A program made the position numbers. Below are positions 9,001-30,000 of a stretch of 64,000 nucleotides of DNA, one piece after another. Source of the stretch: Candidatus Cloacimonadota bacterium (lineage in GTDB: Bacteria; Cloacimonadota; Cloacimonadia; JGIOTU-2). Within the stretch, counting starts at the first letter, position 1. Every line of letters starts with the position of its first letter. Location: contig JBNGBT010000001.1 in assembly GCA_049903315.1 (NCBI GenBank), positions 160,001-224,000 on the forward strand, given 5' to 3'.

Positions 9001-12000
9001 CTGGTAAATCTTTGAACTCCTCTTCGCTGATATATGGTGGATTGGAGATTATGCAGTCGTAAGTACCCGTTACTTTATCAAAGATATCAGATCGCACTAA
9101 TGAGATATTCTGTATTTTTAGATGATCTATATTTTTTTTTGCGAGTTGTAATGCTCTTTCAGAAATATCCGTTGCAACGATGTGAATGTCTTTTTCCGAC
9201 TCTTTGAATGAATTGCTGATTGAGATTGGAATATTACCTGTACCTGTACCAATATCAAGAAGTGACCATGATTTTTGATTGGATTGTTTTATATGTGAAA
9301 TAACTGCATCGACCAGGATTTCGGTTTCAGGACGTGGAATGAGCACTCCTTCTTCGACGAAGAAAGGAATTCCATAAAATTCTGTAGAACCAAGAAGATA
9401 TTGAACCGGATAATGTGAAGCTCTTTTTTTGATAAGTTTTTTTATGTGTGATAGATCTTTTTCTGAAAGTGGTCTATCATATTTCATATATAAGTCAAGG
9501 CGTGAACATTCAAGAACATGAGCAATGAGCAGTTCTGCATTCAAGTGTGGAGAAGGTATTTCCTTTTCTGAAAAATAGTCCGATGTCCAGAAGAGTACGT
9601 CCTTCACTGTCCATATTTTACTGTCTTGCGATGCCATAGTATGAGTAACGAAACACAGGGTGAATTGTTGTCAAATTTATATGAGATTGATTAAGTTTTG
9701 ATGAATTATTTTACCGTTCAAATTGAACTTTGTGTCGAGAGAATGATGTGAATTTATTTCATCAGCACACATTTTTTCAATGCTTCGGTTTTACCATTCA
9801 CATTCAGTTTATAGAAATACAAACCGGATTTTACCGAATTTCCTGATTCATCTTCTCCATTCCATGATACTGAATGTTCACCTGTCGGTATCGCTTGATC
9901 AACTAGAGTTTTCACTTTCTGTCCTTTTAAGTTATAGATTATAATTTCTGTGTTCTTTGAGCTCTGTTGCGTGAAAAATACTATTTCAGTAGTTGTATTG
10001 AAAGGGTTAGGACTATTTTGTGAAAGCAAAGATTCCGCAGCCTGATTCGAAGGTTCATCTATTCCGACGGTTGTCCATGTACCTGATGAGAGGTCGTAGA
10101 TGCAAAGGTCAGCACATGCTGCACCAAATTCATCAAGGCCGCCATAAAGAATAAGTACAGAATCAGGCTGATAAAAAGCCATTCCAGCATGATATCGCGC
10201 GACAGGGCAATCAGGGAGTTGTGTCCATGTCTCAGTTGTCATATCAAATTCATAAAAATCTGGCAGAACACCCTTATCAGCATTCAGGCCGCCGTTAACC
10301 CACATTTTCCCACCTTGGTATGTCCCTGCTTGATATGCCCTTGCACCCGGGTTGGCGCCGGAAGTATACACATAGTGAAATTCGTTGTCATTGGGGAGAG
10401 TGTATTTACGCACATCGCTGCGGAAGTCATTCTGGTTCCATCTGACCCCTCCATATAGATAGAGATCATTATTATTCATTCCACCGCTTTGTCCTGCTGA
10501 AGGAGCATGTATTTCCTTTTCTGTCCAGGTGTTTGTTGACATATCGTAACTCCAGAAATCCATCTTATTAGAGCCACTCGCATCTGTGCCGCCATAGAGA
10601 TAAAGATCGTTGCCATCTCCGACGAGAGAATGGTCTTTACGCGCCACAGGCAAGGTTGTTCCACCCTGAGGCCATTCTGACCATGTGTTCGTATACGGGT
10701 TATAAGACCACAAACTATTACTTAATCCATATGTGCTCTGTCCACCATAAACATACATGACTGCATCCAGATATGCGGCCTGGTCCTTGCTTGCAGGAGG
10801 TGGATCAGTGATAGGGACTACATTATTCCATCCATTTGCATCATAAGCAAAAAGGTCATCTTTTAGGTCTCCCTGAGCGCCTTCTCCACCGAAAAGCATT
10901 ACTCGTCCATCAGGCAGAGTTACCATACCGTGTCCATGACGTGCTCCGGGGTGATCATCTTTTTGGCTGAGTAAAAACGAGTTGGGGAAAATGATCATGA
11001 GCATACAAATTATTATTGTTTTACATTTCATTTTTGACTCCTCTGTTATTGATTTACTTCATTTAACTATATTTTCTGAATAATCATCAGATTTTAGTCA
11101 AGTATTAAAATTCATGTGAGTATAAAAAAAACGCACACCGAGTTCGATGTGCGTCTAACATATATCGTAATAGTGCGGAGATTATTTCATTAAGACCATT
11201 TTCTTTGTGATTTGCTTTTCGCTGGTTTCAAGCTTGTAGAAATACACGCCGTTGGCAACGGTTTTATCATGGTTATCTTTGCCATCCCATACAAAGTCCA
11301 TAACAGTTCCTTTCGGGCTTGTTTCCGGGACGAATGTTTTCACGAGTTGCCCTTTGATGTTATATATCTTCAACTCAGCCTTATGCGAATTTGCAGGAAG
11401 TGAGAAGGAAATAGTTGTTGAAGCAGTAACAGGATTTGGGAAATTCTGGTCGAGTTTGAATTGACTGATCATATAAGGATCGTCATTCGAGGTCATGGGA
11501 ATTTCATAACTGGAAGTGGGATCACCAATGAGAATATCATCAACATGGATACCGTCTTCTTGAACATAACCGTCTGAATCCATATAGAATCGGACATAAA
11601 CCTGTGGCTCACCTGCGAAATCAGAAAGGTCGGATGTTTCTGCCACCCAATCTACTTGTGTGCCGTCATAGAGCGGTTCCCCAGTTGGTTGGTAACTTCC
11701 TGTGCCGGGCTCCGTGTATTCACCTTCAAGTGCTGTCCATGTAGTTCCATTTGTCGATGCCTGTACTTGGGCATAGTCATAGTTGGGTTCTATATCCCAT
11801 TTTACATTGAAGTACAAGCTTGCACTGCCTTCCAGGCTGCTCAGATTGATGGGATTTGTGAGCTGCAAAATAGCCGTTGTCCAGGAAGGATAACTACCAC
11901 CGGGGCTGTCTGTAAAGGAATGGGTTGGTGAAACATAGTCTTCTTCAGTTGCTCCCCAATCAGCAGAAGTCCATTGAGCAGTGCCATCTTCTGCATCATC

Positions 12001-27000: not shown

Positions 27001-30000
27001 GGCGCACCGATGTAAGGATTGTTCTCACTTCTACCGGAGTTGTCTGCTGCGTGAATATAGTAATTTATAATTGTTCCGTTTGACTGTGCAGGAATGCTTG
27101 CCGAGAAGAAGTTTCCAAAAATTTGATGTAAAGGAAGAGTATTGAACTGAATATCGGTTGAGCGTTTCCAATACACAAGGAGAGAGTCTGAAATCAATGA
27201 TTCTCCGCTATACGCAAAAATGCTGGTCGTGATGGTAATATCATCAGACGTACTGATAGTATCTGCAAGAGGGGTATGGTAGATATAGAGCATTCCCTGA
27301 TCTGTAACGCCCATTGTGCGGCAGTGAAGTGCATCAGTCGATTGCCATGAGCCCGTAAAACCAAGTACTTCATAACCGGGCATAGCTGATTCGTAAGATG
27401 CGAGTGCGGGTGCATCATAAGCACTACCTGTGATCGGCACGAGTACTTTATTATTTAAAATGAGCGAGTTTGTGTATGGCTGATTATTTGGCGTATTCAC
27501 ACGCGGAACTTCGTAGTTTGTGCCATAACAACTCGGCTGAGATTCAAAATAATCAACCGCTGCTTCGATCTCATCATATTGGGAATGATATGTGGGAACT
27601 TCACGAATGAGTATTTGCGTTGGGCTGAGATATTTTCCCCAGCAATCAACATGTTTTATATATTCTCCATTTACATCAGGAACAACATGATACGTTTCTA
27701 TGCCGAGATAATCATTAACAAGCGTGTTGATTTCTGCGTGGGTCAAACCGGAATTTTCTTCCCATATCAGATCTGTAGAAACTGATATGCCGTGCCCATC
27801 TGTCATATAATTGCCACCTGTTGCAGTCAACCCCATATTATATACATTAATTCCGAAATATGTCGCGCAGAAAGTGGGTATAGCATTATCGTTTGGACGG
27901 GGTCGGTTATAGGTGAAATTTGTGATTCCGGCCTCATTGTTACCATTAAAAATAAACCAGGGACCATAATCGCGAATCCAGTATGAATCCGAACTTGTAA
28001 TAAGAAATTCGACATTGCTCATATTCACACCGGCATTATTGAACGTGTTATATGCAGTGGTTTGAGAGCTGGATGAAACTATGCAATAGACCATCACGTC
28101 TTCAGCCATTTCTGCAACAATTGCCGTCGAGATGCCAAGGGGATAGCGTATCAGAACTCCCTGCATAGGATCAAATTCTGAAGGTTGACGTACTGGTCCA
28201 GGGGGCTCGAGTGTAGGAAGGAAATCCTTCCCGATCTCGTCGAGGTGGAGTTTTTCATCTTCCGTCAGCCAGATTGGAAGTTCACCAGGATGCTCATCTT
28301 GCCATTGCTCAGCATGGGGGATTTCTGCATAGAGAATAATGGATTTTGCGAAAAGTGTCACATTAAGACAAAGTAAAGAAGTTATGATAAAGAATATCTT
28401 CTTCATTAAAAAACCTCGAATAAATTTTTAATTTTGTTGGAAATTCCTGCAGGTGATTTTTTTGTCAATTCTCTTATTGAATAAAAAAACTTGCGTTGAA
28501 ATATTTACTTTTCAATATCTTGCATACTGAAAATATCCTTCAGCATGAGTTTGTTTGCATAACTGTGAGAAAAATAAATATTTGCAACCGAGTATGTTTA
28601 AACGTTTTATAAAATTTACAATTAGAGGTTTGGTCGGAACAGTGGTTGACACCGCTGTTCTATGGCTGCTGACGACCTATGCTTTTCACACATACTTCTC
28701 AAAATACATACTCGCTCCTTCCATATCTTTCGAGATTGGCATACTTGTGGGATATGTGATCATCTATTTTTGGATATGGAATCATCGAGTACTCAACAAT
28801 TTTAAAGATTTTGTTCGACGAATTCCGAAGTATAATTTGGCAGTTTTATTCTCATTTGGCGTGAAACTCATTCTTCTAAATATCATTAAACAGATTTTTC
28901 ATTTCGATGTGGTGATATGTAACCTCATTGCACTTTTTTTCTCTGGATTTATAAATTTCTTTACCAACGAAAAGATCGTTTTCAAAGAGAAGAAAACAGT
29001 CGTCGAAGATCTATACGAAAATTTATAAACGAAACTTTTTTACAATCTTAGGATCATACATAATTTCTATAATTAACCTCTATATTGTGGTTTAGGATAC
29101 TGTTATAAAATTAGCACTCGTGCCATAAGAGTGCTAAATATTATTTGACATTCAATTTCATCGTATTATATTATTTTGTAAATCGTGAAAGATAATAGAC
29201 GTGAAACCAAAAATAATGAAAGGAGGTTTAAGATGGCTATTATCAGATATCAACCCTTCAGGAACATGCTGGACAGTTTACTCAAGGATAACGAATTCAT
29301 GCCCGGCTTCCAGGATACCAATTTCAGAATGCCTGTTGATATTTATGAAAAAGATGGCAATGTCAGTATTGATTTTGAACTTCCCGGTCTTGATAAAAAG
29401 GATATAAATATCGAACTTGAGGGAAACAATCTTACTGTTTCTGGTAAAATGCAAAAGGATAATGAAGTGAAAGAAGAAAACTACTATCGCTGTGAGCGTT
29501 CATACGGTGAGTTTTCCCGATCTTTTACCATTCCTGACGGGATCAAGGAAAAAGATCTCAAAGCATCATATAAAGATGGTGTATTAAAGGTCACATTCCC
29601 CAAAACCAAAGAGATTGAAAAAAAGAAAAAGATTGAGGTCTCATAAAGTCCTGGTACTCCAAAGCCTGTTCGTCATGTGCGGATGGGCTTTTTTTTTATC
29701 AGTAGAAAATTTGACATCACATCATAAAAAGAATAAGATTTAAAAAATTAAATAGGATAATAATATTGTGAACTACAAAAACGCGAAATACAAAACCCAA
29801 AATAGAATAATGTTAAACAATTGCATTTCGTGGCTTTTAAAATATAGGAGATGAAATGAATACTCAAACAGCAAGTGTGGTCGTGTTTTCCACTCCCATG
29901 TGTTCCTGGTGTAGAAAGACCAAGGATTATCTCAGAAAGCACAATATACGTTTTAAGGATATCGACGTTGCTAGGGATCAGGCTGCTGCGCGCGATATGG

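Follow-up and report, generated by a model that had tools for sequence, protein, structure and literature searches.

Gingipains and a PPAD-type peptidylarginine deiminase at a Cloacimonadota locus, and the spread of the Rgp-PPAD pair among bacteria and archaea

Organization of the locus

The window, a stretch of 64,000 nucleotides from a Candidatus Cloacimonadota bacterium, carries on its minus strand the gene of a PPAD-type peptidylarginine deiminase (ppad, 26664..28406, 580 aa). The product is composed of a signal-peptide-like N-terminus and a catalytic propeller, followed by an Ig-like domain and a T9SS C-terminal domain. On the same strand lie the genes of a Kgp-type (Lys) gingipain (kgp, 20540..24520, 1326 aa; propeptide, catalytic set, Ig domain, CarboxypepD_reg, MAM-like and T9SS C-terminal domains) and of an RgpB-type (Arg) gingipain (rgp, 16649..20527, 1292 aa; propeptide, His/Cys dyad, Ig domain and T9SS tail). 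The genome-wide survey's note had described the three genes as standing side by side. This holds for kgp and rgp, which adjoin with a 13 bp gap, but ppad is 2.1 kb off, across three unrelated genes of the plus strand (a 117-aa ORF, ruvX and mltG/yceG, 24711..26488). A separation of ppad from kgp by ORFs of like size and orientation recurs in loci L003-L005 and L059, and locus L061 has one extra ORF between them.

All three named types are present in the interval, but it does not consist of the trio only. A third, divergent C25 peptidase (11182..15117, minus strand, 1311 aa) has His-Gly and Cys motifs and a T9SS tail. Neither the Kgp nor the Rgp type fits it, and a PDB search gave no match. Located 25 bp upstream of this gene, a minus-strand ORF (15142..16578) encodes an ArsR-type HTH fused to a degenerate M29 aminopeptidase-like domain. 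It has no T9SS tail and is possibly a peptide-sensing regulator. All these ORFs are present in the window at the positions given. In the whole genome, BLAST identifies 14 C25 ORFs rather than the 15 counted before, and one of the 14 is the PorU sortase.

Two plus-strand hairpins, both consensus matches only, were found at 26537..26563, in the gap where mltG and ppad converge, and at 16610..16637, between rgp and the HTH-M29 gene. The latter may end a kgp-rgp transcript. A promoter scan was not informative (78 sites against 62 +/- 8 in shuffles). The T9SS C-terminal domains ascribed to the ppad, kgp and rgp products were recovered by domain search: the T9SS cargo of the window carries the type A domain, with TIGR04183 above cut-off. 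SprA (SprA_N), the PorV family and PorU are present in the genome.

The PPAD-type enzyme

The ppad product matches the P. gingivalis PPAD structures with E 2e-112, as compared with 1e-9 or weaker for agmatine-deiminase-like chains. With a full-length PPAD from metagenome record L118 it shares 38% identity (204/531). The catalytic residues C362, H252 and N313 correspond to PPAD C351, H236 and N297, and the guanidinium anchors D146 and D254 to D130 and D238. R168, R170 and Y249 are equivalent to R152, R154 and Y233, the clamp of the C-terminal carboxylate, and W143, I250 and C255 to W127, I234 and C239. The roles of the PPAD residues, clamp included, are described in PMC4487231 and PMC4893104. 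Judged by these residues, the enzyme encoded by 26664..28406 is truly of the PPAD type. The second PAD_porph gene (C71), also taken for a PPAD relative, is without R152/R154/Y233 and is not PPAD-type.

P. gingivalis PPAD (PDB 4YT9, 4YTG, 5AK7; PF04371) has the same four-part architecture as the window enzyme, at 38% identity over 531 residues, and G182 is also common to both. N235 and G345 are replaced by K and S, respectively. The window enzyme is a member of a different subfamily, nearest to Thermoplasmatota proteins and short-linker fusions, and its host is environmental, unlike that of P. gingivalis PPAD. An exclusive clade of window and Porphyromonas PPAD is rejected (AU p 0.005). A basic residue precedes the mature start of PPAD in 58 of 79 readable rows; this feature is not universal, notably in archaea. 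A single-sequence fold of the window enzyme (pLDDT 36) was useless as a model.

Databases list PPAD-like proteins, much as the genome-wide survey's note suspected, under the name 'agmatine deiminase family protein'. This name and the separation of ppad from kgp-rgp in the window would suit a secreted agmatine or free-arginine deiminase, whose proximity to gingipains would reflect the clustering of T9SS cargo genes. The window enzyme is far below the cut-offs for the agmatine deiminase AguA, with 55.9 bits against 381.8 (TIGR03380) and 54.8 against 483 (NF010070), as is PPAD itself. AguA (PDB 2JER, 3HVM) has the pentein fold and the catalytic residues in common with the window enzyme. AguA enzymes, as described in PMC4487231, are cytoplasmic and single-domain with closed sites, whereas the window enzyme has the carboxylate clamp, an Ig domain and a secretion tail. 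The intact clamp, fusions with the Rgp type only and archaeal operons in the absence of T9SS (see below) make this reading very improbable.

The Kgp-type and RgpB-type gingipains

The product of 20540-24520 scores 406 bits with Kgp and 134 with RgpB; that of 16649-20527 scores 237 bits with RgpB and 59 with Kgp. The assignment to types is thus supported by bit scores, but the end-to-end alignment reported before is not: likeness to the solved Porphyromonas chains is limited to about residues 20-690 of 1326 in the Kgp-type protein and 66-652 of 1292 in the RgpB-type protein. The C-terminal halves of both contain CarboxypepD_reg, InhA-like MAM and FlgD-Ig domains. At the Pfam threshold used, no haemagglutinin/cleaved-adhesin domain was found in that of the Kgp-type protein; a sub-cut-off choice-of-anchor J match was seen only in the RgpB-type gene.

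In the Kgp-type protein, K131 lies in the inhibitory propeptide loop, D390/H445/C478 form the catalytic set and D522 occupies the S1 position. These residues correspond to Lys129, Asp388, His444, Cys477 and the S1 residue Asp516 in Kgp numbering. P. gingivalis Kgp (PDB 4RBM, 5MUN) shares with the window protein the propeptide Lys loop, D388/H444/C476-C477, W513 and D516, as well as an Arg-Asp junction after the propeptide and the Ig domain. The window protein differs by having other accessory domains in place of the haemagglutinin/cleaved-adhesin domains of Kgp. A general dependence of the Kgp propeptide junction on Rgp was rejected, since it applied to the closer Kgp tier only.

In the RgpB-type protein, propeptide R128 corresponds to RgpB Arg126, and the H440/C473 dyad to His211/Cys244. 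D392 is equivalent to the S1 residue Asp163, and V471, Q512, W514 and M518 to Val242, Gln282, Trp284 and Met288 (roles of the RgpB residues as given in PMC9559808 and PMC4357240). All these features are common to P. gingivalis RgpB (MEROPS C25; PDB 1CVR, 4IEF), as are the Ig domain and the T9SS tail. The window protein has about 550 extra residues (CarboxypepD_reg, MAM-like). Its gene is directly behind kgp, and in other lineages rgp is fused to or operonic with PPAD, unlike RgpB. Three RgpB residues are changed in the window protein and likewise in close relatives: E152 to Q, D158 to Y and H166 to M. Glu152, Asp158 and His166 are residues of the S1 loop in RgpB, and their status as defining residues of the Rgp type is uncertain. 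H166 is kept in 50/50 fusions and in 15 of 16 sampled Rgps of the phylum. Because of these changes, the activity or the calcium site of the window Rgp may differ from that of RgpB. The catalytic residues that the survey had flagged as unchecked are kept in all three proteins, as are specificity residues.

Distribution, operons and fusions

Nearly all genomes of the phylum carry each of the three types: Kgp-type genes are found in 208/232 genomes, RgpB-type in 195/232 and PPAD-type in 136/158. Outside the phylum, genes of the PPAD type are present in Thermoplasmatota archaea as well as in Bacteroidota, Aminicenantes and Fibrobacterota. PPAD and its gingipain partners are thus no speciality of Porphyromonas, as had been proposed, and the module is a feature of Cloacimonadota that reaches beyond them. 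R152/R154/Y233 are kept in 63 of 63 PPAD domains from named loci. Among the 120 nearest relatives of Porphyromonas PPAD, R152 is found in all and R154 in 117.

The new evidence that weighs most comes from other genomes, not from the window. Natural C25-PPAD fusions account for 44 of 120 long homologues, and their C25 part is of the Rgp type without exception. It is nearest to the window Rgp in 52/52 fusion rows (14 C25 queries compared), which come from 44 proteins and 8 loci that overlap in part. Asp163, His211, Cys244, Trp284 and Met288 are kept in 50/50 complete fused C25 domains, and the propeptide-loop Arg in 49 of the 50. The predicted fold of one fusion (pTM 0.50) matches the PPAD and RgpB structures, with no trustworthy inter-domain geometry. 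Since linkers vary from about 80 to more than 1000 residues, neither a fixed geometry nor channelling is shown. The fusions do not form a single clade (AU p 0.007), so the link between Rgp and PPAD has repeatedly been formed or broken. In many genomes of the phylum ppad is not near rgp. A root placed on the C71 paralogue was discarded as an artefact of long-branch attraction, and we therefore make no claim on the direction of transfer.

In archaea, ppad was found in 24 of 81 genomes. Rgp is directly upstream of ppad in 13 of 19 fetched loci, at 2.4 kb in one more and fused in another. The archaea with this pair have no T9SS, a fact in favour of a function that does not depend on a T9SS envelope. 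This bears on the idea that the pair acts on surface proteins of the cell itself, or renders harmless the cationic peptides of competitors or predators, in biofilm, vesicles or defence. P. gingivalis PPAD is reported to citrullinate its own adhesins and to affect biofilm and vesicles (PMC7847538), and about 169 ORFs of the present genome bear a T9SS-like tail and are possible substrates. With the pair kept in archaea that lack T9SS, and with no defence context among the scanned ppad neighbours, such a role appears improbable.

Arginine and citrulline metabolism

The survey had read the trio as an arginine-harvesting line, in which Rgp and PPAD release arginine as citrulline, and citrulline, once taken up, serves catabolic ornithine carbamoyltransferase (OTC) and carbamate kinase for ATP production, without ADI. 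Its enzymatic premises are borne out: the 96% complete genome gives no match to ADI, and its OTC scores higher than the TIGR00658 cut-off. A single carbamate kinase gene is present in the genome, and it lies in the window (39469..40440, plus strand, above cut-off). Five M14 matches supply candidates for the carboxypeptidase that this route requires. P. gingivalis PPAD is described as the citrulline source, with citrulline seen inside cells (PMC7847538). With the OTC, carbamate kinase and M14 matches, the route would be chemically feasible.

Other observations stand against it. An ArcE candidate (C55:103279-104622), named by description only (a 'putative GTPase' with weak likeness to cyclic 2,3-diphosphoglycerate synthetase, fitting the description in the TK2200 paper), has counterparts in 195/232 genomes of the phylum and in three of the four archaeal genomes with ppad that were examined. 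According to PMC11032458, the ArcE route converts arginine to citrulline with ATP gain, yielding two ATP per arginine versus one for ADI. Deimination before uptake would therefore lose energy. The ArcE-OTC-carbamate kinase pathway of Thermococcus kodakarensis, for which candidates of all three genes are present here, requires no PPAD; in the window's genome the three lie apart from one another, and ppad has none of them as a linked gene. The carbamate kinase gene follows two AOTC/YgeW-like, non-OTC carbamoyltransferases (36955-38031 and 38225-39262) and is near xdhC and ygfK, a purine-catabolism-like context rather than an arc operon. Neither arcA nor clustering with arcB/arcC was met in the genome. 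The transporter that the survey left unnamed was not found among the families tested: there is no ArcD equivalog among the three APC permeases, and no match to YfcC/DcuC, SBP_bac_5, PTR2 or OPT, which cover antiporters and peptide importers.

Among 109 ppad-neighbour proteins scanned, only two are arc-like: an OTC-family gene placed two genes ahead of rgp in one archaeal locus, and a carbamate-kinase-like gene adjoining ppad in one Aminicenantes locus. They speak for the harvest, but no transporter or arc gene is conserved among these neighbours. Taken together, the proposal that PPAD is an ATP-yielding stand-in for a missing ADI is not supported, and we regard citrulline harvest as an unlikely main purpose.

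A proposed role in proteolysis

We consider it highly probable, from the specificity residues, operons and fusions, that Rgp feeds PPAD as the survey supposed, and this chemistry is very likely old. The kgp-rgp pair would cut proteins after Lys and Arg, and the PPAD-type enzyme would then deiminate the arginines that Rgp exposes at C-termini, giving citrulline and ammonia.

For the purpose of this chemistry, we favour support of proteolysis, with the window encoding enzymes that an amino-acid-fermenting anaerobe secretes for proteolysis; we give this reading about an even chance. A peptide ending in Arg would still fit the Asp163 pocket of Rgp and stick to the anionic cell surface and matrix. 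The cleaved Rgp propeptide would likewise end in an Arg that plugs the pocket; RgpB Arg126 is reported to sit in S1 and to be the first autoprocessing site (PMC4357240). Removal of the charge by PPAD would free protease and products. Citrulline reaching the cytoplasm could be salvaged via OTC and carbamate kinase, as a by-product. This proposal draws on reasoning and on the mutant phenotype of one species: deletion of ppad in P. gingivalis is reported to reduce proteolysis and to leave gingipains retained in the matrix (PMC7847538). It has to be set against the window itself, where ppad and rgp do not form a single co-oriented unit. A metabolic role fits as well, because P. gingivalis PPAD is described as also acting on free arginine and shaping arginine pools (PMC4893104, PMC7847538).

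PPAD could also be mainly a surface ammonia generator, with Rgp as supplier of substrate, that buffers fermentation acid or holds the pH near the protease optimum. Such a role, assigned to P. gingivalis PPAD in PMC4487231, would account for an irreversible extracellular deimination and for co-existence with ArcE. However, one ammonia per arginine residue would be small compared with amino-acid fermentation, and fusion to Rgp would not be required. We find this hard to favour and rank it slightly below the surface or defence role.

More tentatively, and with more doubt than for support of proteolysis as such, Rgp and PPAD may form an old, mobile two-enzyme module of bacteria and archaea of anoxic habitats, arranged in operons and repeatedly joined in one fused protein, in which PPAD resets the protease by deiminating the C-terminal Arg of product and propeptide and so lets both out of the Asp163 pocket. 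Protein breakdown in sediments and digesters might then commonly include a so far unrecognised C-terminal citrullination, and Porphyromonas would have inherited its virulence pair and put it to a new use.

Significance

The novelty claimed for these genes has to be trimmed, since PPAD homologues of Cloacimonas and Thermoplasmatales were already drawn in a pPAD/AgD-type group (Cummings et al., 2022, supplementary tree). Rgp-ppad operons or fusions were not found in the published literature searched. Passages of PMC13539308 (2026) still call PPAD unique and name homologues only in other Porphyromonas species, and PMC4487231 contains the proposal that its specificity evolved after transfer of an agmatine deiminase. 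That hundreds of genomes from the environment, those of archaea among them, have intact enzymes of the PPAD type with a link to Rgp indicates that specificity and partnership pre-date the pathogen, and that the partnership has a host-independent job. The natural fusions are ready-made enzymes for probing this job, and add to the microbes that may be a source of C-terminal citrulline. Because it is intact across the phylum and in sediment archaea, often as neighbours or fused, the Rgp-PPAD pair looks like an old protein-digestion tool and not the invention of a pathogen.

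Gene cluster in the window

In reading order, the first gene of the cluster encodes a 580-residue PAD_porph protein of PPAD type (26664-28406, minus strand). After a 117-aa ORF, ruvX and mltG, all on the plus strand, come two minus-strand genes, 13 bp apart, for C25 peptidases of 1326 and 1292 residues. A third, divergent C25 peptidase (1311 aa; 11182-15117, minus strand) ends the cluster. It is preceded by an HTH-M29 gene (15142-16578, minus strand), whose product joins an ArsR-type HTH to a degenerate M29 aminopeptidase-like domain and is a candidate peptide-sensing regulator. 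A Kelch-repeat protein with a T9SS tail is encoded directly downstream (9754-11031). Type A T9SS tails scoring above the TIGR04183 cut-off are carried by all three C25 proteins and by the deiminase, and the genome (2.96 Mb, 96% complete) contains SprA, PorV-family and PorU genes. Elsewhere in the window, a low-GC block (42588-53336; 30-37%) contains genes for FHA, PP2C phosphatase and TPR proteins and for two Ser/Thr kinases, of which one bears an FGE-sulfatase domain along with six PASTA repeats.

Against PDB sequences, the 1326-aa protein matches Kgp (406 bits; RgpB, 134) and the 1292-aa protein RgpB (237 bits; Kgp, 59); the third C25 protein has no match. The 580-aa protein matches PPAD with an E value of 2e-112 and agmatine-deiminase-like chains at 1e-9 or weaker; that it is a misread agmatine deiminase is very improbable. 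The genome-wide survey's note had described a full-length trio lying side by side. The enzyme types agree, but gingipain likeness ends near residue 650-690 in both proteins, and three plus-strand genes intervene before kgp and rgp. In the window itself the genes are only loosely clustered, and the stronger finding comes from operons and fusions seen elsewhere.

Specificity residues

The survey's note had left the residues unchecked; the specificity sets are present in all three enzyme types of the window. PPAD requires C351, H236 and N297 with D130 and D238, and grips the C-terminal carboxylate with R152, R154 and Y233 (PMC4487231, PMC4893104). All have equivalents in the 580-aa protein. A second secreted PAD_porph protein of the genome (contig C71, 54711-56438) has the catalytic residues and a T9SS tail and lacks the R152/R154/Y233 clamp. 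In RgpB, the relevant residues are His211, Cys244, Asp163, Val242, Trp284 and Met288, with propeptide Arg126 plugging S1 (PMC9559808, PMC4357240). The 1292-aa protein has equivalents of them all; it and its close relatives differ from RgpB at E152, D158 and H166, the last being retained in 15 of 16 other Rgps sampled in the phylum. The 1326-aa protein retains the propeptide Lys, D388, H444, C477, W513 and D516 of Kgp. In the Rgp and the Kgp type alike, the residue in the propeptide loop points to the same specificity as the S1 residue, giving two separate read-outs. Among the 14 C25 regions of the genome, four lack any His-Gly motif and may be inactive.

Distribution and phylogeny

At E 1e-20, 208 of 232 phylum genomes have a PPAD-like match; by eye, the best hit in five of them is weaker than 1e-60, and these five may hold the paralogue type. 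A Kgp-like match is present in 195/232 (E 1e-70), and an Rgp-like one in 136 of the 158 genomes at least 90% complete (E 1e-65). One small-genome family has none of these, nor the ArcE candidate discussed below (0/6 each). The Lys signature is kept in 23/23 Kgp-like proteins sampled (the 11 closest and 12 hand-picked). Of the 59 genomes with positions listed for both genes, at least 33 have kgp and rgp on the same strand and no more than 5.5 kb apart (hand-entered count).

Scanning named genomes turned up 64 loci of PPAD type, spread over Cloacimonadota, Bacteroidales, Flavobacteriaceae, Aminicenantes, Fibrobacterota, Spirochaetota, Clostridia-labelled bins and Thermoplasmatota. R152, R154 and Y233 are retained in 63/63 alignable domains (61 loci; three were split or cut). 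A search with a Porphyromonas-type protein from a metagenome record returned 5751 proteins at 1e-20, other PAD_porph types included; the best 120 retain R152 (120/120), R154 (117/120) and Y233 (107/120). Ser or Thr replaces Y233 in 12 of these 120 and in 5 of the 52 fusion rows described below (among homologue-search proteins P0001-P0240). This change is tied to internal-arginine access in human PADs (PMC4487231), and such proteins are possible endo-acting variants. Two close relatives (L059, 303-2480; L061, 9803-11992) have a ~140-residue insertion within the catalytic propeller, resembling a MAM/adhesin-type beta-sandwich by eye and without a Pfam match; the flanking active-site motifs are intact.

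In FastTree (176 rows) and quick IQ-TREE (53 rows) analyses, the window PPAD and its relatives adjoin short-linker fusions and proteins from Thermoplasmatota, with support values of 99 and 98. Porphyromonas PPAD falls in both among Bacteroidales-type proteins and one Cloacimonadota protein. AU tests, with groups named after the trees were seen, rejected an exclusive window-plus-Porphyromonas clade (p 0.005) and a single clade of all fusions (p 0.007). Because of this post hoc naming and the lack of a reliable root, the term orthologue, as used by the survey, holds at subfamily level only, and we claim no direction of transfer.

Operons and fusions of rgp and ppad

Among the 120 listed of 281 long PPAD homologues, 44 also contain a C25 domain (only a fragment in two). 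Eight fusion loci were also found, one archaeal and seven from Cloacimonadota, several encoding the same proteins as the 44. The C25 part is nearest to the window Rgp in 52/52 fusion rows when compared with 14 C25 queries from the genome, and never to Kgp or another paralogue. Asp163, His166, His211, Cys244, Trp284 and Met288 are retained in 50/50 complete C25 domains, whose propeptide loop carries Arg in 49 and Lys in one; the PPAD halves keep R152/R154 in 52/52 and Y233 in 47/52. One fusion modelled with AlphaFold (26-row alignment; pLDDT 74, pTM 0.50) has a predicted structure whose best matches are PPAD and RgpB.

A PPAD-type gene is present in 24 of 81 sampled genomes of the archaeal order to which locus L009 belongs. 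We examined 19 of these 24 loci (of the others, three were already covered and two are fragments). An Rgp-type gene lies directly upstream on the same strand in 13, at 2.4 kb in one and fused in one; four show no rgp within the stretch examined. The genes also adjoin in four Cloacimonadales loci. The link is recurrent in separate branches, although kin are not independent, and Rgp followed by PPAD very probably constitutes a two-step chemistry.

Many of the archaeal proteins carry no T9SS domain and terminate instead in a tail of hydrophobic or amphipathic appearance. In L193-L200 and other loci, Rgp and PPAD have in common a C-terminal tail, Phe/Leu-rich and with Pro at its centre, that may serve both as membrane anchor or sorting signal; the L208 protein ends in a dockerin-like repeat. 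The third C25 type of the window stands directly upstream of ppad in four other loci (L014, L017, L039 and L107), and therefore a second protease partner may exist.

Possible role of the deiminase

The survey's note had proposed that citrulline is burnt for ATP in a cell without ADI. An ADI search of the genome found none, and OTC, one carbamate kinase and five M14 matches make citrulline catabolism possible. As the purpose of PPAD, this route is nonetheless unlikely. The carbamate kinase gene lies in a cluster of the window (31469-40440) with xdhC, ygfK, a REP-associated tyrosine transposase and two tandem carbamoyltransferase genes scoring AOTC/YgeW-like, below cut-off, a context that we take to be purine catabolism; the kinase could serve both routes. 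The tandem pair (35% mutual identity) is unusual. The neighbour proteins compared, 109 in all, come from 38 of the 64 loci and mostly from genes no more than two places away from ppad (long proteins were trimmed to 500 residues); only one of them is carbamate-kinase-like and one OTC-family. Searches for YfcC, SBP_bac_5, PTR2 and OPT families gave no match. This genome encodes a highly conserved ArcE candidate, found also in 195/232 phylum genomes and 3 of the 4 archaeal ppad genomes tested. Its identification is indirect: it is labelled 'putative GTPase' and weakly resembles cyclic 2,3-diphosphoglycerate synthetase, as described for ArcE (PMC11032458). Since the ArcE pathway yields two ATP per arginine (PMC11032458), extracellular deimination would forfeit one.

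In P. gingivalis without ppad, proteolysis is lower, gingipains and adhesins are kept in the matrix, and arginine pools are higher (PMC7847538). Together with the energetics, the kinase context, the neighbours and the lack of matches to those transporter families, this leads us to place support of proteolysis above citrulline for ATP, with about an even chance of being the main purpose. Self-modification or defence is improbable, and a role in pH has a similarly slim chance.

Relation to earlier work

pPAD genes have been reported as more widespread than thought (Cummings et al., PMC8826395). Figure S4 of that paper labels Cloacimonas acidaminovorans, Ca. Cloacimonas sp., a Thermoplasmatales archaeon, Lentimicrobium and Caldithrix, with PPAD, as 'pPAD/AgD type'; the parts covered contain no residue or gingipain analysis. 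A gingipain-like C25 protein (PMC8542988) has been noted and T9SS mooted (PMC11285876) in Cloacimonadota, and papers on Thermoprofundales appear to mention gingipains. A 2026 review, in the sections covered, names PPAD homologues in Porphyromonas only. Our searches showed no publication that describes rgp and ppad as an operon or a fusion, with subscription journals and supplements thinly covered, so that an earlier mention is possible. The survey's claim of novelty for PPAD and gingipain partners beyond Porphyromonas thus narrows: PPAD homologues of Cloacimonas and Thermoplasmatales had already been listed (PMC8826395). The window genes are real members of known enzyme types; what had gone unrecognised is the range of these enzymes and the arrangement of rgp with ppad.
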